DNA of 64,000 nucleotides from Desulfosoma sp. (GCA_037481835.1 JBBFKW010000006.1:152173-216172); one strand, 5' to 3'. Positions 18,808-36,339 are shown, counted from the stretch's first letter. Notes: generated from the letters alone by a model not told the origin. Numbers and translations are program-made.

Positions 18808-18836
18808 CAGGAAGGCCGTTAGTGAGTGGGCTCTTT

Positions 18837-19036: not shown

Positions 19037-19054
19037 CCGGTACACTTCTTGCAT
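19037..19054 (+). promoter_or_regulatory. Sigma-54 (-24/-12) promoter
   Basis: CCGGTACACTTCTTGCAT: GG at 19039-19040, exactly 10 nt, GC at 19051-19052; ~160-200 bp downstream of the putative UAS. Confidence 0.65.
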
Positions 19055-19226
19055 GAAAACTTCGTCAATTTCAGCTCGAGGCCGCGCAGTTTTGGCGAGC
19101 TCGAGCGGCGTGCTTCGAAGAAATGCCCATGCCCCAGGGCGATGGGATTTCTTGCGGCGGCGACAGGGACAAGAGAGATCACAAGGCTCAAAGGTTCTTC
19201 GGCGGTGCGGAAAAGATTGATGAAAC

Positions 19227-20423
19227 ATGGAGCAACTCATGAAAAGGCTCTCGGAGCGCATTGAACGTCGTCGGGACCGCCGGCTCCCGGTTTCCTTAGG
19301 CGCTGTGCTCAGGGCGCCCGATGGGCGATGGGCCCGCCATGCTCATGTAAAAGATCTCCACCGCTTCGGCGCCCGCGCTTGCGTTGAGGACATGGACATT
19401 CTGGCCGAAGACGACCCCGTTCTTGTCGAGTTTGACCTGGATTCCGAAAAGGGAGAAGCCCTCGGACGTGTGCGGTGGACACTTAGGGGCGAGGGCGACA
19501 GCCTCCACTGCGGCGTTACGTTCGACGAGCCTCTTTCAATTAAACTCCCATTGGACACCGTCCAGGCGGCTTTCGCGCGCCTCCAGGAAGAGGCGCCTGA
19601 GCATAAGCTAAATATGAACTACTCTTTGCTGGAAAAAATCACCCTGGCCATGCATGGAGAGACGTGGGCTGGAGGTCTTCTCAACTTGTTTGCAATTCCT
19701 GCGCAGCACGCCTTGAATGCCTTAGGCACACGCTTAGAATTGGATTCTCTGCGTCTTCAGAGGGCGTTATCGGAGACACATGCCCTTTCCGCCAAAGCCT
19801 CTTTGCACCCACTTTTATTAATTTTAACGGACGTTTTTCAAGACCTTCAAACCATATCGAAAAAAATCAAAGAATTCATCAGGCATCTCAACTCACTCCA
19901 TGGATCCTTGCTCCTTGAGCCGGATAATTACGTCCGCCAAGTAGATCCGGCGGAGCTGATGCGGCAATCAGTAACATTCATGGAGGCGCTTTGCGGTTTT
20001 CTCGGGGGCAAAATGGCATCGCTGCGTTTTAGAACAGCGGAGGGTGCACTCCCCTTATTGGGGGTCCGCCCGCTGGATTTACGGCGGAGCCTTGATGCGT
20101 GCCTTCTAGGGATGATGGAATCAGCCCTGTGCAGCCAGGGCACCACCATAACTGTTGGACCTATAGAAACGGAAAGCTGGGTCGGGGTACAATTCGGCCA
20201 TGACGGCTTTCGCATGATGCAAGCGCAAGCTTTACGTCTCCGCCTTGACGATGCCGGGTTCATCGGTGAAACGAGCAGCCGGGACGAACGGACTGCCCTC
20301 AGATTTTACCACGCCATTTTGCCCTTACGGGAATATGGCGTGTTTCTCAATATTTATCCCGAATCCGGACGCAACCGAGTACAGCTGCGGTTACCCTTAA
20401 CTACGCGAGCCAACAGCGCATAA
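19227..20423 (+). CDS. PilZ-domain protein with an uncharacterised C-terminal region
   Basis: ERRRDRR (RxxxR), DLHRFG, GRVRW...CGVTF in the first ~100 aa. Start could be 19239. Confidence 0.7.
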   Translation: MEQLMKRLSERIERRRDRRLPVSLGAVLRAPDGRWARHAHVKDLHRFGARACVEDMDILAEDDPVLVEFDLDSEKGEALGRVRWTLRGEGDSLHCGVTFDEPLSIKLPLDTVQAAFARLQEEAPEHKLNMNYSLLEKITLAMHGETWAGGLLNLFAIPAQHALNALGTRLELDSLRLQRALSETHALSAKASLHPLLLILTDVFQDLQTISKKIKEFIRHLNSLHGSLLLEPDNYVRQVDPAELMRQSVTFMEALCGFLGGKMASLRFRTAEGALPLLGVRPLDLRRSLDACLLGMMESALCSQGTTITVGPIETESWVGVQFGHDGFRMMQAQALRLRLDDAGFIGETSSRDERTALRFYHAILPLREYGVFLNIYPESGRNRVQLRLPLTTRANSA

Positions 20424-20711
20424 ATCCAGCACTCAGGGCGAGAAGCTCTCCAGGATGCCCTGAGCGCCGAACTCTCCCGCGACAATTCGAGTCACGCATG
20501 CTGGTGATTTTCGGAAAATTTCAGGGTAACAATTGAATATTGGGAAAGTCTGGTTAACTTTGGGGATGTCATTTCACCTTTTCCTACCCCTCATTTCGTT
20601 CTTTTTTCCCTTTTCCAGACAGTCTACGTGCACCATGGAGTCAGGATGTCGCCAGGAGAGGTGCAGGGACAAGACTCTACAAGCCTGGAGGGGCAAAAGG
20701 AAAAGTGAACG

Positions 20712-21086
20712 ATGGAAACAACAAGGGAAAGGCGCCTTCATGAGCGGTTTCGCCTCGCTGGCGATGTTTTCCTCGCTTTCCGACCCAGCTTCGAGAGGGT
20801 GGGAAGAATCCTTGACATCAGCGCCGGTGGGATTGCCGTGGAATACGCTTCAGACCTTGGCCCCCTCGAGCGGGGTGAAGTGCTGGTCGACATTTTTGTG
20901 AAGCATAAGAACACACGAATCCGCAGCCTTCCATGCCATGTTGTCTATGATGTCGAGGAGCCATCGGGTTTCGAATGGGGGGGAGTTGCACTGCGGCGTT
21001 GCGGCTTGAAGTTCTTGGCCCTGGCAGAGGAACACTTTTCGGAACTCAGAGGATTCTTCAGCGACTGCATAATGGCACCAGCATAA
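20712..21086 (+). CDS. Single-domain PilZ protein
   Basis: ERRLHER, DISAGG (DxSxxG), RCGLKF. Confidence 0.85.
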   Translation: METTRERRLHERFRLAGDVFLAFRPSFERVGRILDISAGGIAVEYASDLGPLERGEVLVDIFVKHKNTRIRSLPCHVVYDVEEPSGFEWGGVALRRCGLKFLALAEEHFSELRGFFSDCIMAPA

Positions 21087-21106
21087 GGCCTATCTTCTTT
21101 GGTTTC

Positions 21107-22024
21107 TTACTCCTTGAGGCCTTCTCGACAGGTTGCCAAGTAGCTTCGAAGGTCGGTCTTGGTGTCGGCCAAGTTCAACTTCCTCCGGATGTTTCTCCGG
21201 TGCGTTTTGACGGTGCTTAGCGAAACGTGAAGCTGTCGGGCTATTTCTTCCGTAGTCAGGCCACTCTTGATAAGCGTTGCAACCCGTAACTCTGTGAAGG
21301 ACAACGTGGAGACGATTCTGCCGCTCAAAGCATCCCCGGAGGTCAACTCGTCGATTATTTGTTGCATGGCCGCCTCCAGTTCGGCGGCTTTATCCGCGGT
21401 TCGGGCATTAAGGGCCAGTCGTCCCACTAAAGGCATAATAACCCCGCGTAGTTGAATAGCGATGCGCCTCTCTGTTTCTTCACGTTCCCTGGCGATGTTC
21501 TGAGCGAGAACGGCCATGGCTTTGTTGGTTTTGAGCAGCTGCTCGTTCAGAAATTCCAGTCGGCGGTTTTGCTCCGTAAGGAGCCTTTCGTTTTCGCGAA
21601 GCTCTTCCAGCAAAGCCCTGAGTCGGTCTTCTTTCCGTTTGGCGTCCAAGGCCCTCTCAATGGCATGCTTGAGAATCGAGTAATCAAAAGGCTTCTCAAT
21701 AAAGTCGAAGGCCCCAAGCTTGAGAGCCTGTATCGCTGTATTCTTGTCGGCGTATCCGGTGACCATGATGACCTTTACGGAGGGGAATCGCGTTTGAATC
21801 TGAGGCAGGAAGTCCAAACCGTTGCCGTCCTGGAAATGGACGTCGAGTAAAATGACATCATACTCGGGACGACTCTCTGAAACGCTGAGGACGTGGGAAG
21901 GATGCGGACAGGTGTCGGCCCTCATCTGCCACGATTCAAGGAGGCCCTGGAGGGTTTCACAGATCATGGGCTCGTCGTCGACGACGAGAACCTTGGGCAA
22001 TCCATCGTTCTCGGTGTATTTCAT
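21107..22024 (-). CDS. Response regulator with REC, coiled coil and LuxR-type HTH
   Basis: VLVVDDE, ILLDV, FIEKPF; LSFTELRVA...TVKTHRRNIRRKL. Confidence 0.9.
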   Translation of the reverse strand: MKYTENDGLPKVLVVDDEPMICETLQGLLESWQMRADTCPHPSHVLSVSESRPEYDVILLDVHFQDGNGLDFLPQIQTRFPSVKVIMVTGYADKNTAIQALKLGAFDFIEKPFDYSILKHAIERALDAKRKEDRLRALLEELRENERLLTEQNRRLEFLNEQLLKTNKAMAVLAQNIAREREETERRIAIQLRGVIMPLVGRLALNARTADKAAELEAAMQQIIDELTSGDALSGRIVSTLSFTELRVATLIKSGLTTEEIARQLHVSLSTVKTHRRNIRRKLNLADTKTDLRSYLATCREGLKE

Positions 22025-22153
22025 GGTTGTGCCCTTCTTTCAGGGGTCACTCACGACAAATATGGTTCGACCAAACAGTGGAGACCCTGCCGCACACGAG
22101 TCTTAAAGCTCATCGCATTGACACCCATTAATAGGGCAAAACGCCGGTAGGTT

Positions 22154-23143
22154 TCAAGGAATATCCGGATGGGGGGCTTCCAGTGACCGTTTTGAACGTC
22201 TGCGGCCGCTCAGGGAATTTTTCAGACTATAAATTCTTCCACGGATCCCCAGCTTTCTTCGGATGTTTTTCCTATGCGCTTGCAAGGTCGTGACACTTAC
22301 CCCCAAGTGTCGAGCCAGAATCTCACTGGGCACCCCCTGTTGGACCAGTATGGCGACTCTAAGTTCGGTGGGGCTTAACCTGGCGATCATCTCCGCATGA
22401 ATGCTGGTCGGGTCCGTGAGTCCTTGCAGGGCACACAGGATCATGCTTTTCAATTCCGCGCCCGCAATTGCCGTTTGAGGGTCTTCGGTCATTTTCATGA
22501 TGATGGGCAGGAGCCTGGCCGAAACTTTTTTTCTGACGGATTCCGCAGCCTCCTGCCGCTCCATTTCCATTCGTTCCATGAGAATGGAAAGGGCTTTGCG
22601 CGCCTCAGAAAGTCGCTGCAGAAGGACTTGAAGGCCCCGTTTTTGCCCCATCAGCCGATTTCTGCTTTCTTCCAATCGGGTCAGCTCTTCTTGGAAGCGT
22701 TGCGTCATCTCCAGATCACGGAGCACCATGAGGAAGCGATGTTCAATTACGGTGATGTCATAAGGCTTTTCCACCCAGGCATGAACACCGGGCGGAAGCG
22801 TCGGAACGTCTCCCCCGACTCCCACCGGTCTGCTTATGATGATTTGTGGAAAGGCGTCCCCGTCATGTTGCTTTGGAAGGCGTTTCTTCATGTCGGAATG
22901 GGCGAGGAGCTCCGCCGGCACCAAGACAATGTGGTAAGGCTTAAGCCCTTGGCGAGCTGAGATGTCCCTCGGATGTTGGACCCAATCGGCCTGCAATCCA
23001 TTGGCCTTGGCGCAGCGCAAAACCTCCACGCAGGAATCCCAATCGCTGTCAACAATGAGGACGCGGTATATGCGGCATTCGTCTGTCTGCGTCTTCTGCC
23101 GTCTTGTTCTCACACGGCAACCTCTACTTCCGGTCTCGAGCAA
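22154..23143 (-). CDS. LuxR-type regulator with a degenerate receiver domain
   Basis: C-terminal LSPTELRVA...TLQAHRKNIRRKLG; N-terminal VLIVDSD and EKPY, but HIVLVP where the phosphoacceptor Asp is expected. Start uncertain. Confidence 0.75.
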   Translation of the reverse strand: MLETGSRGCRVRTRRQKTQTDECRIYRVLIVDSDWDSCVEVLRCAKANGLQADWVQHPRDISARQGLKPYHIVLVPAELLAHSDMKKRLPKQHDGDAFPQIIISRPVGVGGDVPTLPPGVHAWVEKPYDITVIEHRFLMVLRDLEMTQRFQEELTRLEESRNRLMGQKRGLQVLLQRLSEARKALSILMERMEMERQEAAESVRKKVSARLLPIIMKMTEDPQTAIAGAELKSMILCALQGLTDPTSIHAEMIARLSPTELRVAILVQQGVPSEILARHLGVSVTTLQAHRKNIRRKLGIRGRIYSLKNSLSGRRRSKRSLEAPHPDIP

Positions 23144-24183: not shown

Positions 24184-24351
24184 ATGGAACGGACAATTAA
24201 GAAAGCCCCTTATTCATCCCCGAAGCTCACAACATTTGGAAACCTCAAAACCATTACCTTGTTTGGAGGAGGCAGGAGGCATTTTCGAGACCGCTTCAAG
24301 CCGCATGATGAAAAACCCGGGGCGAACAGTCCCCAGCCTTTTACTTCCTAA
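24184..24351 (+). CDS. Lasso-type RiPP precursor peptide (55 aa)
   Basis: Manual translation: MERTIKKAPYSSPKLTTFGNLKTITL-FGGGRRHFRDRFKPHDEKPGANSPQPFTS*. Exact YxxPxLxxxGxxxxxTx leader; AAAGGAGG RBS 8 nt upstream; heads the kinase/ABC/NTase/B1/B2 genes. Below the ORF-track size cutoff. Confidence 0.88.
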   Translation: MERTIKKAPYSSPKLTTFGNLKTITLFGGGRRHFRDRFKPHDEKPGANSPQPFTS

Positions 24352-24497
24352 GCGTTTTGAATCGCCAGGCGATTGGCCAACACTTTTAGGAATCTTACCT
24401 CCTGATGCTTGGAAGGAAGCTGCCCGATCTTCCCGCGCCGCGAGCATTCCGCTCAGGAGCATGACCCTGCTCCAAGAGGCGACCGGAGCGACAGCTC

Positions 24498-25517
24498 ATG
24501 CACACAGAACATAATTATAAGACAATGGCATATGAAGCTTTCGGTTTAACTATAGGCTCTGACATGGTTATTCCGGAACTAGTGAAATCTGAAAGCAGCC
24601 GTTGGGATATTCATGTTCGCAGAGGGCCTGTTTTTTACAGACTCAAAGGGATTGAAGAAGACGGGTACAAGTGTGCCATGACGGCCAATGAAGCCTATTT
24701 GGAATGGAAGATTGTGGGACGCTTCGCCATTCTAAACGGCAAACACATCACCGTGGACCCGGCCCCGGGTGTGGACGAATCGGTCATTCGGGTTCCCTTG
24801 CTTGGCATGGTCATGGCCGTTGCCCTCATGCAGCGCGGGCTGCTGGTCCTTCACGGGAGCGTGCTGGGGATGGGAAAAACGGCCGTCGCTTTTCTCGGAG
24901 ACAAGGGTTTTGGGAAATCCACGTTGGCGGCGGCCCTCTATGCTCGGGGCCATCGGCTGATTTCCGATGACATCCTGGCCATCACGGCTTCATCGGCCAA
25001 ACGCCCCAGGGTTTGGCCGGCCTTTCCTCAATTCAAGCTGTGGCCCGAAGTGATCCCCTCGATTTTCGGCTTGAAGGCAGAAGAACTCCCCAGGGTCCAT
25101 CCGGAAGCGGAAAAGCGGATCCTAACGGTAGCGGAACGCTTTGAGAGACAAGTCCTGCCGCTCAGCCGCATCTACATCCTGGACGCCGGGCCGTGTGCTC
25201 GAATAGAATCTCTCCCGCCCCAGGAAGCCCTCATGGAGATTATCAAGAATTCCTACTTGGCCCGGTTTTCGGACCAGGCGGACCGAAGTGCAGAGGCTCT
25301 GCAACTGCGCGGCTGTTCGAATCTTCTCAAGTTCGCATCCGTCTTCCGATTGATTCACTGTTTCAGCCTTTCCAAGCTGGAAGAACTGGTGGAAATGGTG
25401 GAGGAGCACGCGGGAACAGCAACTCATTCAACCCGCGGCTTGCAACGGAGGGTCGTGGAGGAACCAGTCAGCGTGCCGGAAGCGGCGTCGTCTTCCGCCG
25501 GGAGCGCACAGCCTTGA
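24498..25517 (+). CDS. HPr-kinase-like peptide kinase (paeninodin PadeK type)
   Basis: YEAFGL, LVLHGS, P-loop GDKGFGKST, ISDD; lasso-cluster context. Confidence 0.85.
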   Translation: MHTEHNYKTMAYEAFGLTIGSDMVIPELVKSESSRWDIHVRRGPVFYRLKGIEEDGYKCAMTANEAYLEWKIVGRFAILNGKHITVDPAPGVDESVIRVPLLGMVMAVALMQRGLLVLHGSVLGMGKTAVAFLGDKGFGKSTLAAALYARGHRLISDDILAITASSAKRPRVWPAFPQFKLWPEVIPSIFGLKAEELPRVHPEAEKRILTVAERFERQVLPLSRIYILDAGPCARIESLPPQEALMEIIKNSYLARFSDQADRSAEALQLRGCSNLLKFASVFRLIHCFSLSKLEELVEMVEEHAGTATHSTRGLQRRVVEEPVSVPEAASSSAGSAQP

Positions 25518-27349
25518 TGAAGAAACCGTCAAACCGGACCGCTCTTTTTCATCTTCCGGAAACCCTCCGTCTCGTATGGGGGGCATCCCCGAAGTGCACA
25601 ATTCTATGGGGGACTTTGCTCGCCGTTCAAGGACTCCTTCCGGTCGTTCCCCTTTATCTGACCCGAAGACTGGTTGACGGATTGGTCGAAGCGGTCAACG
25701 CAAGCGGGGCCTGGCCTGTGATGAAGCCCTTGGCCGTGATGATCGGGCTCCTGGCGTTGACTATGCTGCTGATCGAACTGGTCCAATCGGTCTCGGAATC
25801 GGTGCGCGTGGCGCAATCCGAGCTGGTAAGAGATCACATTGCCGGCCTCATCCACGAAAAGTCGGCCGGCGTTGATCTGGCCTTTTATGAATCTTCTGAT
25901 TACTACGACCATCTGCATCGGGCCCGTGACGATGCCGACGGCCGATGTCTTGCCTTGATGGAAAGCGTCGGGAGTCTGGCACAAAACGGGATCACACTCG
26001 TGGCTATGGCTGCGGTCCTATTGCCTTACGGGTATTGGGTGCCGTTGGTTTTGCTCGCCGGGACGCTGCCTGCTTTTTTGGTCATCTTCTACTTCGACAG
26101 GGCCTACCACGACTGGTGGAAGCGCAGCACTCCTGATCGGCGTTGGGCGGATTACTATGATTTTATGCTCACCCACGCCACTACGGCCCCGGAAATTCGT
26201 TTGTTCGGCTTAGGAGACCCTTTCAGGCAATCCTATCAGAGACTTCGACGGAGCCTCCGTGCCGAACATATCAAGATCGTTCGCCATCGCAGCGCGGGTC
26301 GCTTCGCCGCAGGGGCCTTCGCTCTGTTGTCCACCGGCGCGGTGATGGGAATCATGGTCCTTAGGGTCACGAAGGGGCTTGCCACATTCGGCGACCTGGC
26401 CCTCTTTTACCAGGCCTTCACGCGCGGGCAGAATCTGATGCGTTCCCTGCTGAGCAATCTCGGCCGGATTTATACAAACGGCTTGTTTCTGAACAACCTT
26501 TTTGAGTTCTTCAATTTAAAGCCTCAAATCACCGACAGTTCCAAGCCGCTTGGGGCTCCCCGAAAACTGAAGCGCGGCATCCGGTTCCATCAGGTCACTT
26601 TCCGCTATCCCGGAAGCGACAGGAAGGCTCTGGACGGTTTCGACCTGTTCATCCCCGCCGGACAGACCGTGGCCATCGTCGGCGCCAACGGCGCGGGGAA
26701 AAGCACATTGGTGCGCCTTCTTTGCCGGTTTTACGACCCCGAGTCCGGAAGCATCGAATGGGATGGTGTGGATGTAAGGCAAATGCCCTTGCAGGACCTT
26801 CGCCGAATGGTGACGGTGCTGTTTCAAATACCGGTCCCCTACCATGCCACGGCTTCCAGGAATATCGCGTTGGGGGACATCGCCGCCGAAGGTGATCCGG
26901 CAGATGTGGAGATGGCGGCGCGATTTGCCGGAGCCCATGAAATCGTATCCCGCCTACCTCGCGGCTATCAGACCCTCTTGGGCAAATGGTTTGCCGACGG
27001 CACGGATCTTAGCGCCGGCGAATGGCAACGCATAGCCCTAGCCCGGGCATTTTACCGGAAAGCTCAGATCGTCGTCCTCGACGAGCCCACGAGCTTCATG
27101 GATTCATGGGCCGAAAAAGAATGGTACGACCGTTTTCAAACACTTGTACGAGGGCGTACGGCGGTTCTGATCACCCATCGATTCACTCTGGCCAGACGGG
27201 CTGACATCATCCATGTCATGAGCGACGGCCGGATCGTCGAATCCGGGACGCACGACCAGCTTTTGGCATGCAAAGGATTATACGCTGAAGCCTGGGGGGC
27301 CCAATGGGGCCATGACAAGCTTACCTCCTGCGCATTAGCCGAGGCGTGA
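25517..27349 (+). CDS. ABC exporter, fused permease and ATPase
   Basis: TM N-half; GANGAGKST, LSAGEWQRIALARA, LDEPT, ITHR; ATG overlaps the kinase TGA. Confidence 0.92.
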   Translation: MKKPSNRTALFHLPETLRLVWGASPKCTILWGTLLAVQGLLPVVPLYLTRRLVDGLVEAVNASGAWPVMKPLAVMIGLLALTMLLIELVQSVSESVRVAQSELVRDHIAGLIHEKSAGVDLAFYESSDYYDHLHRARDDADGRCLALMESVGSLAQNGITLVAMAAVLLPYGYWVPLVLLAGTLPAFLVIFYFDRAYHDWWKRSTPDRRWADYYDFMLTHATTAPEIRLFGLGDPFRQSYQRLRRSLRAEHIKIVRHRSAGRFAAGAFALLSTGAVMGIMVLRVTKGLATFGDLALFYQAFTRGQNLMRSLLSNLGRIYTNGLFLNNLFEFFNLKPQITDSSKPLGAPRKLKRGIRFHQVTFRYPGSDRKALDGFDLFIPAGQTVAIVGANGAGKSTLVRLLCRFYDPESGSIEWDGVDVRQMPLQDLRRMVTVLFQIPVPYHATASRNIALGDIAAEGDPADVEMAARFAGAHEIVSRLPRGYQTLLGKWFADGTDLSAGEWQRIALARAFYRKAQIVVLDEPTSFMDSWAEKEWYDRFQTLVRGRTAVLITHRFTLARRADIIHVMSDGRIVESGTHDQLLACKGLYAEAWGAQWGHDKLTSCALAEA

Positions 27350-28623
27350 CAATGAACCGAGACGACGACAGAGAAATTTTCTCCTCCGTGAGGCCTGAAA
27401 TGGAGTTGCTCGTCCGATGCGTCGGCCTCCATGCCCACGAGCGCTGCTCGCAACGCATCGAGGAACTCCTCAAGGCAGATCTGGATTTTGATTATCTGGT
27501 CCAGCTGGCCGTGCAGCATCGTGTTATTCCCTTGTTAGAACGCGGTCTCGCAAACGGCCACGCCCGCAACCTGCCTGCGTGGTTCCTCCAGGAACTCAGG
27601 GAACTGCGTTGGTACAACACGCTGCACTCCTTGGCCATGCTCGAGGAACTGCTTGCGGTTTTGCGGATCTTTCGCTCCCATCATATCCGCGCCATCTCCT
27701 ACAAGGGCCCTCTTCTTGCCGAATGCGCCTATGACGATCCCGCCCTGAGGCAGTTTTTCGACTTGGATCTCATTGTCCCGCTTCAAGACGTCCCGTCTGC
27801 AGTGGCTCTTCTTGAATCGCGGGGCTACTATGTGAAACGCGAATTAACGTCCCCTATCAGGACGCGCTCTCTGAAGAGCGACCTGCATCCCCATCATGAG
27901 TACGCGCTGAGCAACCCCACCACCGGCGTGACCGTAGAGTTGCACTGCCTTTCCGGCCCACGCGCTTACGCCTATCCGCTGAACCCCCAAACCGTCTGGA
28001 AACAGGTCGAAACCGTGCGGATTGGAGAAGACACCCTGGACACTCTGCGAGCCGAAGCGATGGCATTGATTTTGTGCATTCACGGGACGAAACACCGCTG
28101 GGCCTGCCTGCAGTGGCTTTGTGATGTCGCGGCCCTGATCCACTCTCACCCCGATTTGGACTGGGACTGGATTCTCAAGACAGCTTTCCTTTCCGGAAAC
28201 GAGCGAATTCTTCTCCACAGCCTGCTCTTGGCCCGGCAGTTGCTAGGAGTTCGGCTTCCGCCGGAGATTAATGCTCACATCCATGCGGATCCCCATGTAC
28301 GTAGACTGTCGGTCCAGGCTCGAAACCACCTCTTTCAGACCGGTGACGTTTCGTCGGAATTGGTGGCCTCGGCGCTTCGTTATCACTTCGAAACTCTCAC
28401 CTCAGGAAAACACAAGACCGCTTTTGTCCTCCACAAAATCCTCTATTCCTTCAATCAATCTTTAACGTTGCTGATGCCCACCGAAAAAGAAAGAAAATTA
28501 GCAGCGCTGCCGGAATTTCTGACCTTTCTTTACTTGCCCCTGCGTCTCGCTCGGCTAGCCGTCAAGTATTCCTCGATGGCCCTTCTTCGTCGATACCCAT
28601 CGAACACCGTCGAGGGCTTCTAA
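27346..28623 (+). CDS. Nucleotidyltransferase-family protein (NTP_transf_5 type)
   Basis: YKGP...Y...RQFFDLDL, VELH, LCIHG...WLCD motifs. Confidence 0.8.
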   Translation: MTMNRDDDREIFSSVRPEMELLVRCVGLHAHERCSQRIEELLKADLDFDYLVQLAVQHRVIPLLERGLANGHARNLPAWFLQELRELRWYNTLHSLAMLEELLAVLRIFRSHHIRAISYKGPLLAECAYDDPALRQFFDLDLIVPLQDVPSAVALLESRGYYVKRELTSPIRTRSLKSDLHPHHEYALSNPTTGVTVELHCLSGPRAYAYPLNPQTVWKQVETVRIGEDTLDTLRAEAMALILCIHGTKHRWACLQWLCDVAALIHSHPDLDWDWILKTAFLSGNERILLHSLLLARQLLGVRLPPEINAHIHADPHVRRLSVQARNHLFQTGDVSSELVASALRYHFETLTSGKHKTAFVLHKILYSFNQSLTLLMPTEKERKLAALPEFLTFLYLPLRLARLAVKYSSMALLRRYPSNTVEGF

Positions 28624-28652
28624 CCCGAGTAAATATCTCGCGCGAGGTTGCC

Positions 28653-28958
28653 ATGAGCAAGGAAAAGACCATCGGACCGGAAACGATTCTTCGAGCTTCT
28701 CAGAATCAGGTTTCCACGGATCTGCAAGGGGAAACGGTTATCTTGGATCTCAAGTCGGGGGTCTACTACGGGCTGGATGCCATCGGGACTGAGGTCTGGC
28801 GCATGATCCAGAAACCTCGGAGCGTAAAGAGCATCCTAGAAGCGCTCCTGAACAAGTACGAGGTCGCTCCCGATCGTTGTGAAATGGATCTAGTTTCCCT
28901 TCTTGAAGATTTGCACGCCAACAACCTGGTTGTGATTCATGATCAAGAAACTGCGTGA
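28653..28958 (+). CDS. PqqD-family RiPP recognition element (lasso B1)
   Basis: DLQGETVILDLKSGVYYGLDAIGTEVW...YEV...DL; 101 aa. Confidence 0.9.
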   Translation: MSKEKTIGPETILRASQNQVSTDLQGETVILDLKSGVYYGLDAIGTEVWRMIQKPRSVKSILEALLNKYEVAPDRCEMDLVSLLEDLHANNLVVIHDQETA

Positions 28959-29430
28959 TTTTCACGAACTGCCGCCTCGGGCGAAGAAATTCTGGCTGGC
29001 CGCCGCGTGGCTTGCTCTAGCGATGCGATTGCTCTTAACGATTGCCCCTTTCCCTGTACTTCGGGCTTTGGTCGCAAAGCTCCACAAGCTCCACGATGTG
29101 TCTCACAGGGTTGATGCGGATACACTCAATGAGATCGCCTGGGCCGTGAGGTCCGCGGCCCGATGGGTTCCCATTCGCGGGACGTGCCTCATTCAGGCTC
29201 TTGTCGGGCAGATTCTCTGCGCGTGCTGTGGGCAGCCTGTCACTTTGTGCATCGGCGTCACAAAGAGCAAGCAGGGGACTTTCGAGGCCCACGCCTGGCT
29301 TGTGACAAGCGAAGGAAAAACACTTATCGGGCAAGTGCCGAATCTGAAGTATTTCGTCCCCTTTGAGGGGGTGTGGGCGGAAAACGGCGCAAGGAGCCCC
29401 GCGAGACCGCCAACGTCTCTCGCGCATTGA
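28939..29430 (+). CDS. Lasso peptide B2 transglutaminase-like leader peptidase
   Basis: TCLIQAL (catalytic Cys), IGV, FEAHAW (catalytic His); overlaps B1. Confidence 0.88.
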   Translation: MIKKLRDFHELPPRAKKFWLAAAWLALAMRLLLTIAPFPVLRALVAKLHKLHDVSHRVDADTLNEIAWAVRSAARWVPIRGTCLIQALVGQILCACCGQPVTLCIGVTKSKQGTFEAHAWLVTSEGKTLIGQVPNLKYFVPFEGVWAENGARSPARPPTSLAH

Positions 29431-29458
29431 TGTTCGCCGCACCAAGGAGATTTATGTT

Positions 29459-30481
29459 ATGAAGACATCTAGATTTCGCCAGGCACAAGCGTTCAGTTTT
29501 TTACTGTTCCTCTCGTTTTTCCTCTTGACGCTTGCCGCGTGTGTGGGCACGGGTCCGGCACCGACGACGAGGCTTGAGGCGCTCGTCGCTCAGGATTCCG
29601 CGGACCGCAAACAAACCGAAGATCTCAATGCGCAAATTTTCGCAGCCGCCAACACGGACGCTGAGCCAGCAAATTACGTTGTGGCCGAAGGAGACCTTCT
29701 TCAAGTGACAGTCTTCGGTGAAGACGATCTCAGCAGCACAGTGCGGGTCAGCGACGACGGCACCATCACATTGCCGCTCATCGGCCTCATTGCCGCAAAG
29801 GGTCACTCCGTCCATGAATTGGAAAAGCGCATCGAACGGGCGTACGGAGAAAAATACCTTCAAGATCCCCATGTGAGCATCTTCGTCAAAGAGCAACAGG
29901 GGGGGAAGATCACGCTCCTGGGAGCCGTGATGAAGCCAGGCACCTACGATTACTTTTCGCGCCGGAGGTTGTTGTCCGTCTTGGCCATGGCCGGGGGACT
30001 GGCGAACAATGCGGGAAGCACGGTTCAGATCCGCCGGAAGACGGACGACGCGGCAAGACCCACCACCTACATTATCGACCTCGCCGATATGCTCAGAACT
30101 GGAGATGAGCAGCTCAATTTGGAAATCAATGCCAACGATGTGATCTTCGTGCCGGAAGCGGGAACGTTCTACGTCGACGGGGCCGTCAGAAAGCCCGGGG
30201 TATATCCCCTTAAGGCGGCAACAACCGTTCGGGAAGCCATCGCCATGGCCGGCGGTACCACATGGTATTCCAACGACGTGATCAAGCTTCTGAGGCGCTC
30301 CGGTGAAGGCAAAACGGACATTGTGGACATGAAGGCGAACAGCCTGGAAACCGCCAATGTGGCGCTTCGGGATCGGGATATCGTTTTTGTCGAGACGAAT
30401 CAGGTCAAGCAAGTGATTTATGGCCTGCGTCTCTCCATCGTCGGCACGGGGGTCTCTTTTACCCCTGTGGAACCGAGATAG
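29459..30481 (+). CDS. Polysaccharide export lipoprotein (Wza/OPX, SLBB domains)
   Basis: Lipobox LAAC, GDLLQVTVF, DGTITLPLIG, GAVMKPG and GAVRKPG SLBB repeats; AAGGAG RBS. Confidence 0.9.
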   Translation: MKTSRFRQAQAFSFLLFLSFFLLTLAACVGTGPAPTTRLEALVAQDSADRKQTEDLNAQIFAAANTDAEPANYVVAEGDLLQVTVFGEDDLSSTVRVSDDGTITLPLIGLIAAKGHSVHELEKRIERAYGEKYLQDPHVSIFVKEQQGGKITLLGAVMKPGTYDYFSRRRLLSVLAMAGGLANNAGSTVQIRRKTDDAARPTTYIIDLADMLRTGDEQLNLEINANDVIFVPEAGTFYVDGAVRKPGVYPLKAATTVREAIAMAGGTTWYSNDVIKLLRRSGEGKTDIVDMKANSLETANVALRDRDIVFVETNQVKQVIYGLRLSIVGTGVSFTPVEPR

Positions 30482-30581
30482 CTCTCTCAACGGATGACGA
30501 TATGGGCCTTGGGGAATCCCGCTCGCCAAGGGGTTGAATCCGCACTCCGGCACAGGATCCCCTCACTGGAAAGGTGACGAC

Positions 30582-32912
30582 ATGGACACACGGAACCACA
30601 AAGGAATGACGGACGCATCGCTGACCCTGGCCTCAGAAATACGGCCACCCGCTCCGGCATACCCGGAGACTGCCGTCGGTTATTACAATTTCTCCCCCGG
30701 TTTGGGCGATTTCTTGGATATCATCATCCGGCGCAAATGGATTGTCATCGCTTCCGTGCTGTTGGTCTTCATGCCGAGCCTTATTTACAACCTGACCGTC
30801 GATCCTATCTACCAGGCCACATGCCAGGTGGAACTCTCATCCTATCCGACCCGGGTAACCAAGTTTGAAGAGGTTGTGGATCCCTTCGGACGGGGCAAGA
30901 CCTTCATTGAAACCCAGATTGCCTTGCTACAGAGCCCGGCCCTGGCGGATCGCGTCGCCTCCAGGCTCAACCTCAAGGAACATCCCCTATTCAGCCCGCC
31001 GCCCATGCCCCAAGACGAAGCCCCAGGTCTCTTACAGCGCCTCAAAGCGGCCGTCCTGTTTGTGAAAAAACAAGTCCTCGCCGCCGTGAAGAGTTGGTTC
31101 ACGTCGAAAGAAAAAAACCCGGCCCCCAATCCGGAACTCAGAGAACTCAGCAAGCTGCTCATGATTCGAGGTTACCTGCTGCAGAACTTGAAGGTCACCC
31201 CCAACGGGGACGCCGACATTGTGACCATTACCTTCGATTCCGAAGATCCGTCACTGGCACGGGATGTGGCCAATGCGCTCGTCAATGAGTTCATGATTTG
31301 GCAAATGGACAGAAAAATCGAGGCCACCAAGACAGCCAAGATCCAGCTCGATCGCCAGATCGAAATCGCCCGCCGGGAACTTGAAAACACGGAAAGCAAA
31401 CTCAACGCCTTTGCCAAAGAAAGCGGCATCGTTTCGCTCGATACCCGGTTGAATCACGTCTATCAGGAATTGGAGCAGATCACCGCGGCCCTCGCCAAGG
31501 TGGAAGCGGACCGCATTGCCATAGAGCAGAGTTACGAGTTAGCGAGCAAGAGCGATCTGGACACATCGCCTCTCGTCCAGAAAAACGACATCATACATAA
31601 CTTGAGGGTCCAATATCTCGCCCTTCTATCTGAATACGAAAAGCTCAAGGTACGATACAAAGATGAGCATCCCGCAATGAAGACCCTCAAAGCAGCCATG
31701 CTGGAGGTGGGGTCACGCATTAATTCCGAACAGGAACGGATTCTGACCACCATTCGCAACGATTATCTGGCGACCGTGAACACCGAGAAAGCCCTTCGAG
31801 CCACGGCGGAAGAGAAAAAGGCTGCAGCGCTCCAACTGAACGATCTCGTCAGCCAGTATAAGAATCTGGAACGAGATGTGGAGGTCAACAAGCAAATCTA
31901 CCAAAGCCTGCTGGGACGTTCCAAGGAAATCGACGCCAACGTGGGAACCGATCTCACCAACATCAAGGTCGTCGATTTCGCAACGCTGCCCCTCAAGCCT
32001 TACCAGCCGAACGTTCCGCGAAACCTCTTTGTCGCCCTTGTTTTGGGACTCGTCTTGGGTGTCGGAACGGCTCTCGTCCGCGAACACATGGACAATTCCA
32101 TCAGACGGGTTGAAGAAATGCCCGGGCGCTTTTGGATTCCCGTGTTGGGCGTCGTCCCCGTGGCCTCAAAACAGGATAAGAACAACCTCCCCTCTCTCGT
32201 CCGGGACAACCCTTCATCGCCGTTTTCGGAAGCGATTCGCATGATCCGCGTGGCCATCCAGCACTCGGCGTCTTTGGACCACCTACATCGAAGAACACTG
32301 CTGCTGACCAGCAGTGTCAAGGGCGAAGGCAAGTCCACGCTTTCCTCCAATCTGGCTCTGTCTTTCGCCCTCGCCGGCGAAAAGACCCTCTTGGTCGAGG
32401 CCGACCTGCGGCGCCCCTCCCTGAGCCAGCACTTCGCCGGCAATGGGAAATCCAAGGGACTGGCTGATTTTCTAAAAGGTGTGGCCAAATACGAAGAGAT
32501 CGTTCAAAAGACTTCCCTCTCCAATCTCTACTTTATTCCCTCCGGGACGCCGGTCACAAACCCCACGGAATTGCTGGGCTCCACGGCCATGAGGGAACTG
32601 CTGCACACAGCCGCAGCCCACTTCGATCGGGTCATCTTCGACGGCCCTCCGTTCACCTCGGACGCCTTGACTCTTGGCAGCCTGGTAGACGGCGTCATTC
32701 TTGTCGCCACACTCGGCCGGACCCATCGGGATGCGCTCCGGGTGCTTCGAGAGGACCTGGCGGCGACCCAGGCCGACCTTGTGGGGAGTATCATTAACAT
32801 GCTTTCTGGATCACGCTTCAGTTCGACCGCTTTCTACCACAACTACTACAAAGGCTATGAAAACACTTACGGCCGCCCTCACCGCAATCTTCCTGCGCGG
32901 GTGGGGCGTTGA
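30582..32912 (+). CDS. Polysaccharide co-polymerase / BY-kinase (Wzc/GumC)
   Basis: Two TM segments with a periplasmic coiled coil, SSVKGEGKS, EADLRRP, DGPP, Tyr-rich tail FYHNYYKGYENTY. Confidence 0.92.
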   Translation: MDTRNHKGMTDASLTLASEIRPPAPAYPETAVGYYNFSPGLGDFLDIIIRRKWIVIASVLLVFMPSLIYNLTVDPIYQATCQVELSSYPTRVTKFEEVVDPFGRGKTFIETQIALLQSPALADRVASRLNLKEHPLFSPPPMPQDEAPGLLQRLKAAVLFVKKQVLAAVKSWFTSKEKNPAPNPELRELSKLLMIRGYLLQNLKVTPNGDADIVTITFDSEDPSLARDVANALVNEFMIWQMDRKIEATKTAKIQLDRQIEIARRELENTESKLNAFAKESGIVSLDTRLNHVYQELEQITAALAKVEADRIAIEQSYELASKSDLDTSPLVQKNDIIHNLRVQYLALLSEYEKLKVRYKDEHPAMKTLKAAMLEVGSRINSEQERILTTIRNDYLATVNTEKALRATAEEKKAAALQLNDLVSQYKNLERDVEVNKQIYQSLLGRSKEIDANVGTDLTNIKVVDFATLPLKPYQPNVPRNLFVALVLGLVLGVGTALVREHMDNSIRRVEEMPGRFWIPVLGVVPVASKQDKNNLPSLVRDNPSSPFSEAIRMIRVAIQHSASLDHLHRRTLLLTSSVKGEGKSTLSSNLALSFALAGEKTLLVEADLRRPSLSQHFAGNGKSKGLADFLKGVAKYEEIVQKTSLSNLYFIPSGTPVTNPTELLGSTAMRELLHTAAAHFDRVIFDGPPFTSDALTLGSLVDGVILVATLGRTHRDALRVLREDLAATQADLVGSIINMLSGSRFSSTAFYHNYYKGYENTYGRPHRNLPARVGR

Positions 32913-32982: not shown

Positions 32983-34401
32983 ATGTTGAAAAAGCATCAT
33001 CGTTTTTTTTCCACTGTCTTTAGACTGTTTGATCTTTTTCTTATCGCCCTGTCTTACGGATTCGCCTACCAGCTTGTTTACGGAATTTCCGTCTATCCCG
33101 GGCACGTGGACGCTATTCCCCATCTTTACGCTCCGGCAGTGAACAGCCTACTGTGGATTGTCCTGTCGAAGCAATACGGACTGTACACATCCAAGAGGCT
33201 CACGCACCTCGTCATGGAACTGCGCGATGTCATCCGTATCGTCTTCATGTGCTTGGCTCCCGCCGCCATCATGGTCGCTTTGATCGAGCAGAGCCCACCA
33301 GCCCATAGGTTCTTGGGTATGGTTCTCGCGGCACAGCTCTGCTTGTTCTTGGCCTTCAGAATATCGCTTCGCAAAACCCTTTCGTACCTGCGCGCCCGCG
33401 GTTTCAACTATCGCCAGGTGCTCATCGTGGGCAGTAACGGTCGGGCCCGCTCCGTAATCCGCGAACTGGAGGGCTCCAAGGCCTTCGGCATTCGGATCCT
33501 GGGGTTCATCGACGGCCTCAAGGGCAAGCCCCGCCCCGCAACGTCTTTGCAGGTCCCCTACTTGGGGTCGCTAGAGGATCTTCCCAGGATCCTGACGGAA
33601 CATGTCGTGGACGAAGTCTTCGTCACCCTTCCGATAAAGTCTTTTTACGAGGAAATCGACGGGATCATCAAGACGTGCGAGACCGTCGGCGTGGAGGTGA
33701 AGCTTTCCACGAACCTTTTCAATGTCCGCTGCTCCAAGTCCGCGATTTGTACCCACTACGACATCCCGTCCATCGACTTCTACACCAGCCCTCGCGACCC
33801 TCTGCAGCTTTTCATCAAGCGTCTGATCGACATCGTGGTTTCATTGTCCATGCTGCTCATATGGTCGCCGATTCTGTGCCTCGTGGCCTTAGCCATCAAG
33901 CTGGATTCCCGTGGTCCCATTCTTTTTCGCCAGGTTCGGGTCGGCTATAATGGGCGTTTTTTTACCATGTACAAGTTTCGGACCATGGTTGAAAACGCCG
34001 AACAACTGAAGCAAGAACTGATGGATTTAAACGAATTGACGGGACCTGTGTTCAAGATCCGCAATGATCCTAGAGTCACGCGGGTGGGGCGGTTTCTGCG
34101 GAAGACCAGCATCGACGAACTCCCTCAGCTCATCAACGTCCTCAAGGGCGAGATGAGCCTCGTGGGCCCGCGCCCTCCCATACCTTCCGAGGTGAGCCAA
34201 TACAACCTGGAGGACCGGCGGCGTTTGAGCATGAGGCCTGGGATCACGGGGATCTGGCAGGTCAGTGGCAGAAACGCCGTGTCCTTCGACCAATGGATGG
34301 CCATGGACAAGGAATACATCGACAATTGGTCCCTGTGGCTTGACCTCAAGCTTCTCATTAAGACCATCCCCGCCGTTTTGACGGGTGAAGGCGCCGCATG
34401 A
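32983..34401 (+). CDS. Priming polyprenyl-phosphate sugar phosphotransferase (WcaJ/WbaP family)
   Basis: KRLIDI, KFRTM, SIDELPQL, MSLVGPRP, PGITGIWQV. Confidence 0.95.
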   Translation: MLKKHHRFFSTVFRLFDLFLIALSYGFAYQLVYGISVYPGHVDAIPHLYAPAVNSLLWIVLSKQYGLYTSKRLTHLVMELRDVIRIVFMCLAPAAIMVALIEQSPPAHRFLGMVLAAQLCLFLAFRISLRKTLSYLRARGFNYRQVLIVGSNGRARSVIRELEGSKAFGIRILGFIDGLKGKPRPATSLQVPYLGSLEDLPRILTEHVVDEVFVTLPIKSFYEEIDGIIKTCETVGVEVKLSTNLFNVRCSKSAICTHYDIPSIDFYTSPRDPLQLFIKRLIDIVVSLSMLLIWSPILCLVALAIKLDSRGPILFRQVRVGYNGRFFTMYKFRTMVENAEQLKQELMDLNELTGPVFKIRNDPRVTRVGRFLRKTSIDELPQLINVLKGEMSLVGPRPPIPSEVSQYNLEDRRRLSMRPGITGIWQVSGRNAVSFDQWMAMDKEYIDNWSLWLDLKLLIKTIPAVLTGEGAA

Positions 34402-34438
34402 TGAGCCGCCCTGGGCGGTGACGCCGAAGGACAAGGTC

Positions 34439-35392
34439 ATGGGTGTGCATTTAAGCATCGTCATCCCCCTTTACAACGAAGAAGATTCCGTGCGCGAACT
34501 GGTCTCTTCCATTGTGGAATGCGCCAAAGATTTTCCCTTTTCCCACGAAATCCTTCTGGTGGATGACGGATCCACGGACGGGACCTGGCGGGTCATCGAG
34601 GAGCTCTCCACATCTGTGCCCACTCTGAGAGCCATCAAGTTCCGCCGCAACTACGGACAAACCAGCGCCATGGTCGCCGGGTTCGACCACGCCCGGGGTG
34701 AGATCATTGTCACCATGGACGGCGATTTGCAAAACGATCCCCGGGACATCCCCCGCCTGTTGGAAAAGCTCGAAGAAGGCTACGACATTGTGAGCGGCTG
34801 GCGGGTCCACCGCCGTGATCATTTTTCACGGGTGCTGCCATCCCGAATCGCCAACGCCATCATTTCCCTCACGACCGGCGTGCACCTCCATGACTACGGA
34901 TGCTCGCTCAAGGCCTATCGCGCCGAATGTATTCGAAGTATCAAGGCCTATGGGGAAATGCACCGCTTCTTCCCCGCCCTCGCCAGCATGACGGGAGCTC
35001 GTGTGGCAGAAATTCCGGTTCGGCATCATGAGAGAAAACATGGCACATCCAAGTATGGTTTCAGTCGCATTTTCAAGGTGCTTAGTGATATTTGGGCCAT
35101 CAATCTCATCATCAAGTTTTCCTCAAACCCCCTCAGAGGTTTTCTTTTTTGCGCCGTACCCTTTGTTCTCCTGAGTCTCTTTTTCTGGCTTCTTTGTGCT
35201 TTGGCCCTTTTTTACTCCTGGACCCAGGGCAAAGCCCAAGTGTTCATGTTCTCGGCTTTGCTCTCGGGCGCAGCCGCCGTGCACCTTGTGGTTCTCGGTT
35301 TCTTGGCGGAGCTGGTGGTGCATGTGAGTGATTTGTCCCACACGCATCTGTCTAAACTGACGAAGAGATGTATCAACGGAGAAACCCGATGA
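34439..35392 (+). CDS. GT2 polyprenol-phosphate glycosyltransferase (ArnC/GtrB-like)
   Basis: VIPLYNE, VDDGSTD, RNYGQ, MDGDLQNDP, two C-terminal TM helices. Confidence 0.9.
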   Translation: MGVHLSIVIPLYNEEDSVRELVSSIVECAKDFPFSHEILLVDDGSTDGTWRVIEELSTSVPTLRAIKFRRNYGQTSAMVAGFDHARGEIIVTMDGDLQNDPRDIPRLLEKLEEGYDIVSGWRVHRRDHFSRVLPSRIANAIISLTTGVHLHDYGCSLKAYRAECIRSIKAYGEMHRFFPALASMTGARVAEIPVRHHERKHGTSKYGFSRIFKVLSDIWAINLIIKFSSNPLRGFLFCAVPFVLLSLFFWLLCALALFYSWTQGKAQVFMFSALLSGAAAVHLVVLGFLAELVVHVSDLSHTHLSKLTKRCINGETR

Positions 35393-36339
35393 GCGAAGGG
35401 ACCGAACGGCACCCCCGCTATTCGGCCATCGTCTTGCTGGAAGACCAAGACAGCGATCTCATCCCGCTCGTCGACACTCTCCACCGTGTTTTCTCATCGA
35501 GACCGGCAGGGTACGAAATCATCATCGTGGCCAACGGGGTCGGAGGGTTCTTGCGACGCGCCTTGGCGAGCGTGGCCATGTGCAATGGAGCCCTCAAAGC
35601 GTACGAATTTCCCTCCAAGGTTTCCCAGTCCGTATGCTTGAAAGCGGGGTTCGAAGAAAGCAGCGGGGAAATCATCATTGTCTGCGGGTCGCACCGGCAG
35701 ATCACGGAATCGTCTTTGATGCGGTTGCTTGATTCCCTGGACGAACAGACCGACATCGTGAATTCGTGGCGCACAAAGAGGAACGATTCGACCTTCAACC
35801 AGCTCCAGTCCCGAGCCTTCAACGCCCTGGTGCGAAAGATCGCGCGCTGCCAAGTGCATGATCTCAGTTCAGCGGTCAAAGTTTACCGTCGAAGCGTTTT
35901 GGAGCAAACGGATTTCTACGGAAACATGCATCGCTTTCTTCCCATCATCGCCGAGGGAAAAGGCTTCAGGACGAAGGAAGTAGAGTGTGAACACTACCGA
36001 TGGACAGGGAAGACCGGACCGTGCCCTCCCTATGAATATATCGAAAGGGTGGCCGACCTTCTGACCCTTTACTTTCTCATTGGGTTTAAAAACAAGCCTC
36101 TGCGTTTTTTCAACGTCCTCGGTACTTTTTTCCTCCTACTGGGCTTCGGCTGCCTTTCCTATGTCTTTCTCGATAAGATGCTCCTTGGCCATCCCGTCGG
36201 CGGCCACCCCTTACTTCTATTGAGTCTTTTTTCGATGGTGTTGGGTGTTCAAGTCTCCAGCGTTGGACTTTTAGGAGAGATTATCGCGTTTACACACGGC
36301 CGCCACAAACGCCAGTACACTATTGAAAAGATACTCTAA
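35389..36339 (+). CDS. GT2-like protein with degenerate catalytic motifs
   Basis: Same layout as the upstream gene (YGNMHRFLP vs YGEMHRFFP), but VANG replaces VDDG and CGSHRQ replaces MDGDLQ. Confidence 0.75.
   Translation: MSEGTERHPRYSAIVLLEDQDSDLIPLVDTLHRVFSSRPAGYEIIIVANGVGGFLRRALASVAMCNGALKAYEFPSKVSQSVCLKAGFEESSGEIIIVCGSHRQITESSLMRLLDSLDEQTDIVNSWRTKRNDSTFNQLQSRAFNALVRKIARCQVHDLSSAVKVYRRSVLEQTDFYGNMHRFLPIIAEGKGFRTKEVECEHYRWTGKTGPCPPYEYIERVADLLTLYFLIGFKNKPLRFFNVLGTFFLLLGFGCLSYVFLDKMLLGHPVGGHPLLLLSLFSMVLGVQVSSVGLLGEIIAFTHGRHKRQYTIEKIL

Follow-up and report, generated by a model that had tools for sequence, protein, structure and literature searches.

We analysed a 64,000-nucleotide stretch of DNA from Desulfosoma sp. 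(GCA_037481835.1 JBBFKW010000006.1:152173-216172; hereafter the window), in which a six-gene peptide module stands at the head of an exopolysaccharide (EPS) locus. The module encodes a precursor peptide (A), an HPr-kinase-like peptide kinase (K), an ABC exporter (D), an NTP_transf_5 nucleotidyltransferase (N), a PqqD-type recognition element (B1) for RiPPs (peptides made on ribosomes and then modified after translation) and a lasso-type leader peptidase (B2), and genes for Wza- and Wzc-type proteins follow. With moderate confidence we interpret it as a functional, secondarily cyclase-less derivative of the phosphorylated (Bsf/paeninodin-type) lasso peptide clusters, which would make and export a linear, C-terminally phosphorylated peptide and which is co-inherited with the EPS locus. 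Among relatives of the phosphorylated lasso peptides, only the LPP (2026) have so far been described as lacking a cyclase; they use another leader peptidase, are reported from Bacillota only and have no known function (PMC13381572). The window locus would reach the same outcome by another route, in which a Gram-negative B1/B2 lasso cluster simply lost its cyclase, and its cyclase-less state is maintained by selection while the module is physically fused to a Wza/Wzc locus.

All genes named in an earlier sequence-only reading of this DNA (precursor, kinase, ABC exporter, nucleotidyltransferase, B1, B2 and wza) were recovered where it had placed them (Table 1). The module is compact: the kinase and ABC genes overlap by 1-4 nt, the ABC and NTP_transf_5 genes by 4 nt and the B1 and B2 genes by 20 nt, and the remaining gaps measure 146 bp (precursor-kinase), 29 bp (NTP_transf_5-B1) and 28 bp (B2-wza). 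A ribosome site, AAGGAGG, lies 8 nt 5' of the precursor open reading frame (ORF), and wza is preceded by an AAGGAG site of its own. The junction between B2 and wza is real and not an assembly artefact, since it is crossed without differences by contigs from two other metagenome runs (27208-30091; 29175-29478). NTP_transf_5, B1 and B2 each occur as a single copy in the genome. The nucleotidyltransferase retains the invariant D137 and D139, the kinase has the conserved His, P-loop and Asp-Asp residues (H119, G139, K140, S141, D157 and D158, in columns conserved in 53-60 of 60 homologs), and C83 and H118 of B2, which are invariant in 41 of 41 homologs, are present. The best NCBIfam model for the exporter is MsbA_lipidA (262.9 bits, under its cut-off); the kinase scores 39.3 bits against the model of HprK-related kinase A (TIGR04352), below the cut-off of 200.

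A lasso cyclase is missing from this set of genes. The region 23144-24497 holds no ORF of at least 150 amino acids, and, as the sequence-only reading had stated, neither the gaps within the module nor the 1 kb upstream of it contain an ORF for a cyclase of ~600 amino acids. While it was right that none lies near the module, that reading had overlooked an AsnB-family gene in the EPS run (38398-40287), which needed testing as a cyclase because lasso cyclases belong to the asparagine-synthase family. The whole genome, a 99.37% complete draft in 38 contigs, was searched with the Asn_synthase model PF00733, which returned three AsnB paralogs and GuaA (GMP synthase); one paralog is the in-locus gene and the other two are on other contigs. 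Against the lasso-cyclase model NF033535 (cut-off 525) the paralogs score 150-203 bits in protein scans and 149-174 bits in the genome search, and all three pass the model of glutamine-hydrolysing asparagine synthase. The in-locus product reaches 202.7 bits with NF033535, 465.9 bits with TIGR01536 (cut-off 267) and 594.7 bits with TIGR03108, its best model. Moreover, all three start with Met-Cys, the class-II amidotransferase nucleophile, which in the in-locus paralog reads MCGIAG.

For comparison with true cyclases we used a survey of relatives, consisting of 80 loci anchored on NTP_transf_5 homologs and classed with profiles built for this analysis, and an additional phylum sample of 17 kinase-anchored loci. 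None of the 21 cluster-linked AsnB-like genes of the related lasso loci starts with Met-Cys, 17 of them having an [M/V]SGI start, and the cluster-linked AsnB genes of the phylum sample likewise do without it. In a quick maximum-likelihood tree the three paralogs join an unlinked true AsnB with a Shimodaira-Hasegawa-like approximate likelihood-ratio test (SH-aLRT) support of 100, apart from the 21 cluster-linked cyclases. With 22 AsnB/cyclase queries, tblastn hit nothing in the genome beyond the three paralogs and a single weak GATase site, and no remnant. The nearest orthologs of the in-locus gene, four in number, 58-59% identical and from other genomes of the phylum, sit in the same sub-cassette as in the window (GT4-AsnB-FAD oxidoreductase-epimerase-acetyltransferase). 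Within ~10 kb around them there is no kinase, NTP_transf_5, B1, B2 or precursor gene, and the kinase search of the phylum had no match in any of their genomes. The same-genus and same-family genomes, which lack the module and whose AsnB homologs are only ~40% identical to the in-locus paralog, reveal no empty site and are uninformative on whether this gene is independent of the module, and it was the phylum search that settled the matter. The product of 38398-40287 was rejected as the missing cyclase on its Met-Cys start, its model scores, its grouping with true AsnB proteins and the lasso-free cassette of its orthologs; it is predicted to be a sugar-pathway glutamine-dependent amidotransferase of the EPS locus. 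The genome-wide search that the sequence-only reading had called for found no cyclase, and judged by these sequences the genome encodes none. Alternative ring-forming enzymes, ATP-grasp or other, were not seen among the ORFs scanned between 17.5 and 64 kb.

We regard it as unlikely that the product is nevertheless a true lasso peptide whose macrolactam is closed in trans, be it by an enzyme that escaped recognition or by one of the three Cys-type AsnB paralogs, among which 38398-40287 is the most plausible. AsnB is the family of the lasso cyclases, the in-locus paralog stands 9 kb downstream on the same strand and is, given the distance of the same-genus and same-family homologs, specific to the island, and the core keeps an Asp or Glu at position 9 or 10. 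All three paralogs, however, have the nucleophile that is absent from the cluster-linked cyclases and group with true AsnB, the closest orthologs of the in-locus gene lie in cassettes with no lasso gene within ~10 kb, in genomes that gave no kinase match, and the cyclase lies inside the cluster in all 22 cyclase-containing loci among the 80.

The survey also bears on where the module came from. A cyclase-type AsnB gene is present in 22 of the 80 loci, 20 have a kinase, B1 and B2 and no cyclase, 13 have a kinase and B1 only, five have a kinase without B1, and the remaining 20 show no other module gene in the available DNA; because many contigs are short, the absences in this breakdown are minimum statements. 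The usual order of the cyclase-containing loci is B1-B2-C-A-K-D-N, where C is the cyclase. The order in the window, A-K-D-N-B1-B2, is this canonical order rotated, and wza stands where C would come. The kinase, B1 and B2 of the window are nearest to those of cyclase-containing loci such as L026, L028, L030, L086 and L089 (phmmer E-values of 1e-52 to 1e-63, 1e-20 to 1e-27 and 1e-10 to 1e-20, respectively), which have homologous leaders and differ in that B2 and the precursor are separated by an AsnB cyclase of the Ser type. In a FastTree phylogeny of 61 kinases, the window kinase and its ortholog from a metagenome contig (L113) nest in a clade in which 23 of the 25 other leaves are cyclase-linked; the two exceptions are a locus cut by a transposase (L062) and one cut by a contig end (L023). 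The cyclase-less HprK-like group of Acidobacteriota is separate from the window kinase in this tree. Since the kinase nests in a cyclase-linked clade and the gene order is the rotated canonical one, the cyclase was evidently lost secondarily, and the module descends from cyclase-bearing clusters.

The L113 contig provides a second lineage with the same arrangement. It is ~70% identical to the window and carries A-K-D-N-B1-B2-wza-wzc-pgt-GT2-GT2-GT4 in the same order with 58-80% protein identity (80% for the ABC exporter, 74% for B1, 75% for Wza and 77% for Wzc), so that the first four EPS genes from 32983 onwards are syntenic as far as the L113 locus reaches. Synonymous divergence between the two is saturated (synonymous divergence, dS, 1.07-1.55), and the ratio of nonsynonymous to synonymous divergence (dN/dS) is lowest for the ABC exporter (0.09), followed by B1 (0.105), B2 (0.154), the kinase (0.18), NTP_transf_5 (0.19) and the precursor (0.30), with 0.10-0.15 for the neighbouring EPS genes. 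The six genes are thus intact and under purifying selection. As the sequence-only reading had proposed, a cyclase-less module is joined to the head of an EPS locus, and the L113 comparison adds that this order is kept under purifying selection.

Upstream of the precursor, window and L113 share no genes, their similarity is confined to about the last 60 nt and to the ribosome site, and the spacer between precursor and kinase is poorly conserved. Synteny begins exactly at the precursor, so the conserved unit starts there and runs into the EPS genes. The regulators at 17776-23143, which lie outside this block and are not syntenic in L113, may control the locus. The module was absent from the three same-genus and five same-family genomes searched (0 of 8), which hold only distant homologs of the upstream regulator. 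The G+C content falls from 0.60-0.64 (window 1-17100) to 0.51-0.60 (17500-64000) after a ComEC-like gene (12860-17101), and the low-GC part starts with a sigma-54 activator, two PilZ and two LuxR-type regulators, followed by the peptide module and the EPS genes. The absence from eight relatives and the G+C drop at ~17 kb fit an accessory island, and this arrangement suggests a regulated one.

An accessory element of this kind could also be a decaying or hitch-hiking remnant that lost its cyclase on joining the EPS island and whose leftover genes make nothing useful. Truncated relatives do exist: in L062, from a Desulfobacteraceae metagenome-assembled genome (MAG), a DDE transposase lies directly upstream of B2-K-N, and B1, ABC exporter and cyclase are missing. 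The absence of the module from the eight same-genus and same-family genomes is likewise what accessory DNA would show. We nevertheless hold this explanation to be very unlikely, because two lineages with a dS above 1 between them have each kept the full set of six intact, with dN/dS values no worse than those of the EPS neighbours, and because catalytic residues, translational coupling and ribosome sites are all retained. The intact genes and their dN/dS of 0.09-0.30 argue instead for a functional module.

The precursor is the sole small ORF of the YxxPxL...G type within 20-32 kb. Its leader contains YSSPKL, matching YxxPxL with Y10, P13 and L15, and if Tyr10 is placed at -17, the register of BsfA (PMC10368454), Thr25 falls at -2 and the core starts at Phe27. 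The match to the lasso_cyano precursor model NF033528 is 25.3 bits, below the cut-off of 33. The core of ~29 amino acids is cationic and ends in Ser. Between window and L113 the leader is identical at 19 of 26 positions and the core at 12 of 27, as is usual for RiPPs, and both orthologs end in the same C-terminal Ser. Core position 3, the phosphosite of Bsf and LPP, is Gly in the window and Ala in L113. Kinases of the paeninodin type phosphorylate the C-terminal Ser, with the linear precursor as their substrate (PMC8498205).

We compared the module with three known systems. The closest counterpart in outcome is LPP (lppA-K-B-S-D-N; Popov 2026, PMC13381572). Besides its precursor, LPP has an HprK-like kinase and a discrete RiPP recognition element (RRE); an uncharacterised NTP transferase, a SipW-like signal peptidase and an MsbA-like pump complete the set, which lacks a cyclase. 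Its demonstrated product is linear, leader-cleaved and polyphosphorylated on Ser3, and leader cleavage in LPP is gated by phosphorylation. The LPP clusters are embedded in capsule loci of Bacilli, with which paeninodin clusters co-localise as well. That report states that both are restricted to Bacillota and of unknown role, and its authors close on the unexplained capsule co-localisation. The window module resembles LPP in its YxxP leader, discrete RRE, HprK-like kinase, NTP transferase, MsbA-like pump, lack of a cyclase and position in a polysaccharide locus. It differs in several respects: its leader peptidase is B2 and not the SpI-like (SipW-type) enzyme of LPP, and no signal-peptidase family was found among the ORFs scanned with Pfam and NCBIfam between 17.5 and 64 kb; of the LPP leader YxxPxVLxHQxIxFETxxS it has only the YxxPxL part, in the lasso register with Thr at -2; where LPP is phosphorylated on Ser3, it has Gly at core position 3 and a C-terminal Ser instead; its organism belongs to the Thermodesulfobacteriota (Syntrophobacteria-related) and not to the Bacillota; and whereas LPP forms a monophyletic group of its own in the published RRE tree, the window kinase nests in the lasso clade. 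Because peptidase, leader motif and phosphosite differ and the kinase falls within the lasso clade, we do not count the module as a member of LPP. It has the YxxPxL leader with Thr at -2, the discrete B1 RRE and the B2 Cys protease of a lasso cluster, and since an AsnB-type macrolactam cyclase without Cys nucleophile is absent from both window and genome, we do not count it as a lasso cluster either.

The phosphorylated lasso cluster Bsf from Bradymonas sediminis comprises bsfA, K, B1, B2, N, C and D (Duan 2023, PMC10368454) and is likewise a Gram-negative A, K, B1, B2, N and D set with a YxxPxL leader whose Tyr is at -17, the register seen in the window. It differs in having the cyclase BsfC, in the phosphorylation of core Ser3 by BsfK and in a penultimate leader residue that is Ile rather than Thr; no EPS linkage is described. 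BsfB1 assists both the kinase and B2, and the leader-removal assay described there used TF-BsfB2 and BsfB1, with no cyclase mentioned in the passages on that assay (PMC10368454). Paeninodin and pseudomycoidin share with the window an HPr-kinase homolog acting on the C-terminal Ser of the linear precursor, a split B1/B2 and an ABC exporter, and differ in having a cyclase and threaded products and in coming from Bacillota (PMC8498205); in the RRE motif of their leaders, Trp is preferred (PMC13381572). The pseudomycoidin nucleotidyltransferase is linked to the addition of hexose to the phosphate (PMC8498205). What the sequence-only reading had said of paeninodin and pseudomycoidin agrees with that source, and its idea of a linear, leader-cleaved phosphopeptide has a published precedent in the LPP family, which at the same time means that its implied degree of novelty was overstated, as LPP clusters in capsule loci were published in 2026 (PMC13381572). 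In the literature covered we found no B2-dependent cyclase-less lasso-type cluster and no Wza/Wzc fusion, although the supplements of the LPP paper and subscription journals, which are outside this coverage, may list such clusters.

By analogy with these systems, the window module is best read as a B2-dependent, Gram-negative counterpart of the Bacillota LPP. In the functional, cyclase-less pathway that we favour, B1 would bind the YxxPxL leader and the kinase would place one phosphate, or perhaps several, on the conserved C-terminal Ser. A further group, for example a hexose, may be put on that phosphate by NTP_transf_5, B2 together with B1 would cut after Leu26, and the ABC exporter would release a linear cationic core of ~29 residues. 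With six genes, one precursor and a defined junction, the system is compact and testable, and it lets one ask whether B1/B2 is productive without a cyclase, what NTP_transf_5 adds and whether such peptides act together with exopolysaccharide.

Several observations weigh against this interpretation. The 38-contig draft state of the genome bounds the absence of the cyclase, and for L113 the absence of cyclase-like sequence applies to the 21.3 kb examined. The first acidic core residue is at position 10 (9 if the leader is cut one residue later) and is Asp or Glu in both orthologs; since this feature is conserved and, of the 14 cyclase-linked precursors put in the same register, 3 share the first acidic residue at position 10, the core still looks ring-competent. 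Known lasso rings comprise 7-9 residues. As far as these alignments go, the acidic residue at position 10 appears neither to support nor to exclude ring formation. Of 41 B2 homologs, 38 carry the Glu of a HAWxE motif next to the catalytic His; in register (residues 118-126, 29290-29316) it is absent from both the window and the L113 protein. Finally, deletion of the NTP transferase of LPP changed nothing detectable (PMC13381572), which makes the role assigned here to NTP_transf_5 a guess. The other two homologs lacking the HAWxE Glu come from L050 and the cyclase-less L059, the latter a compact B1-x-K-B2-D-N locus.

Concerning the polysaccharide locus, the 28-bp gap between B2 and wza contains no terminator-like site on the + strand; promoter and terminator scans over 23000-33100 are at chance level (5 promoter-like sites vs 4.4 expected, 15 terminator-like sites vs 11.8). 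After wzc and the priming transferase there are more than 25 further co-directional EPS genes, which reach the end of the window, also the end of the contig, and the EPS genes 3' of the module span more than 30 kb. They encode the priming glycosylphosphotransferase, GT2 and GT4 transferases, the AsnB-type amidotransferase, an epimerase, an FAD oxidoreductase, pyruvyl- and acetyl-transferases, a Wzx flippase, a PMT_2-like GT-C, a sulfotransferase and a terminal radical SAM/SPASM protein. Among the relatives, Wza/Wzc homologs lie within 10 kb in five of the 80 N-anchored loci (L020, L045, L058, L086 and L090) and in one of the 17 kinase-anchored phylum loci (L144), and the other 91 of the 97 have no EPS export gene nearby. 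Chance would predict ~1.7% (three wza loci in the 3.6 Mb of this genome), giving a rough binomial p of ~0.006; being an uncontrolled count over related loci, the excess is suggestive only. Peptide and polysaccharide are probably co-expressed, and the peptide's likely site of action is the cell surface or the matrix.

The sequence-only reading had gone further and proposed that the peptide primes, anchors or decorates the polysaccharide. This claim is not supported, the evidence for a link amounting to co-inheritance, the terminator-free gap and the modest, uncontrolled excess of EPS export genes near related clusters. A covalent role in the polysaccharide pathway, in which a phospho- or phosphoglycosyl-Ser peptide serves as primer, anchor or decoration of the EPS, would agree with the inheritance of the block from precursor to EPS genes as a unit, with EPS export genes near relatives that are not independent of each other and with L011, L058 and L090, which put NTP_transf_5 with a PqqD and/or kinase-like gene in glycan loci. 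The pseudomycoidin N, which adds hexoses to a phosphate (PMC8498205), and the co-localisation of LPP and paeninodin clusters with capsule loci (PMC13381572) point the same way. Yet the locus owns a priming glycosylphosphotransferase, so that a peptide primer is not needed, the dedicated ABC exporter suggests a free product, most related loci have no EPS export gene nearby, and no candidate enzyme for joining peptide to polymer was identified; we give a covalent role a small chance.

A wider reading, which we consider somewhat speculative and fairly unlikely, is that kinase/nucleotidyltransferase peptide modules have been repeatedly recruited to polysaccharide export loci in different phyla because the matrix pathway makes use of their product, a Ser-phosphate(-glycosyl) peptide that may, for instance, be joined to the polymer or organise it. 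The lasso fold would then have become dispensable here and the cyclase been discarded, with the peptide, its phosphorylation and its export retained. Modules in polysaccharide loci were seen in Thermodesulfobacteriota, Nitrospirota, Burkholderiales, Acidobacteriota and Cyanobacteriota, and capsule loci of Bacilli are known from the literature. If this reading were true, the phospho-Ser tail and not the knot would be the functional part.

L144 (G153:C4) has a complete cyclase cluster (N, ABC, B1, B2, C, two candidate precursors and K); 2.4 kb further on come wza-wzc and the genes of a CpsB-like phosphatase and of a large membrane protein, which makes it the neighbourhood of the window with a cyclase. 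L011, a Desulforhabdus MAG contig with the closest NTP_transf_5 relative among species genomes, carries N, PqqD and a Ser-type AsnB cyclase directly 3' of three GT2, one GH39 and one GT4 gene, and so combines a glycan locus with a gene of the cyclase type; its 10.7-kb contig showed neither a B2 nor a kinase gene. L058 and L090 have N and a kinase-like gene in glycan loci, in L058 together with a PqqD gene.

Table 1. Positions and supporting evidence of the peptide module, the EPS genes and the upstream regulators in the window.
Feature	Position	Strand	Evidence
Precursor peptide A, 55 aa	24184..24351	+	ORF and translation; NF033528 sub-threshold
HPr-kinase-like peptide kinase K	24498..25517	+	PF07475 Hpr_kinase_C 32.2 bits (cut-off 33.3, just under)
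MsbA-like ABC exporter D, permease and ATPase	25514/25517..27349	+	ABC_tran 99.5 bits, ABC_membrane
NTP_transf_5 nucleotidyltransferase N	27346..28623	+	PF14907 175.2 bits
PqqD-type RiPP recognition element B1	28653..28958	+	PF05402 66.7 bits; NF033536 75.1 (cut-off 80)
Lasso-type leader peptidase B2, transglutaminase-like Cys protease	28939..29430	+	NF033537 85.7 bits (cut-off 33); PF13471 82.1
Wza-type polysaccharide export protein	29459..30481	+	Poly_export and SLBB domains
Wzc-type chain-length regulator/tyrosine autokinase	30534..32912	+	Wzz, GNVR, AAA_31; TIGR01007 142.3 bits (cut-off 108)
Priming glycosylphosphotransferase of EPS locus	32983..34401	+	NCBIfam/Pfam scans
Predicted AsnB-family amidotransferase, 629 aa, in EPS run	38398..40287	+	TIGR01536, TIGR03108 matches
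Co-directional EPS genes	32983..63964	+	NCBIfam and Pfam scans
Upstream regulators: sigma-54 activator, two PilZ proteins, two LuxR-type regulators on minus strand	17776..23143		Pfam scan

Other cyclase-less loci were recovered among the relatives. The 20 loci with kinase, B1 and B2 and no cyclase are mostly from Pyrinomonadaceae. The group dominated by this family (L012, L021, L022, L025, L031, L041, L043, L044, L049, L052, L053, L066, L071-L074, L085 and L087) combines N with a distant HprK-like kinase, between one and three PqqD genes and, on the opposite strand, a B2-like protease, and has no cyclase; its kinases form a separate deep clade, and it looks like an undescribed RiPP-like family. 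Three loci from one Thermodesulfobacteriota genus (L142, L143 and L148, from G286, G470 and G424) have B1, B2, one or more precursors and a kinase, with no cyclase in ~20 kb and no N or ABC exporter within ~10 kb. Their genomes contain one AsnB each, of the Met-Cys type, and their precursors share a KKPYQKPEL leader; these loci appear to be a second, independent cyclase-less B2 system. In L054, L061 and L083 (Solibacteraceae/Acidobacteriales MAGs), where no B2 or cyclase was detected, small ORFs with a WxxPRL leader-like motif lie near kinase, N and PqqD genes. Of these ORFs, three (from L054 and L061) carry a Cys-rich tail whose last residue is Ser, and both loci also have an ABC exporter.

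Within the EPS run of the window, scores stay below the cut-offs of the XrtA/PEP-CTERM EPS families (TIGR03027 122.7 of 180, TIGR03007 123.9 of 279, TIGR03108 594.7 of 817), and exosortase was not searched for. The PMT_2-like GT-C (52583-54256, 557 amino acids) is of the ArnT/protein-mannosyltransferase family, enzymes that move sugars from polyprenyl carriers to periplasmic acceptors, possibly including proteins. A sulfotransferase gene (58339-59127) and a radical SAM/SPASM gene of the peptide-maturase kind (62972-63964) follow, the latter at the very end of the contig, which stops at 64000. Genes of these two types, a radical SAM gene and a sulfotransferase-like gene, also stand between the kinase and PqqD genes in L053, the one cyclase-less Pyrinomonadaceae locus that was scanned in detail.

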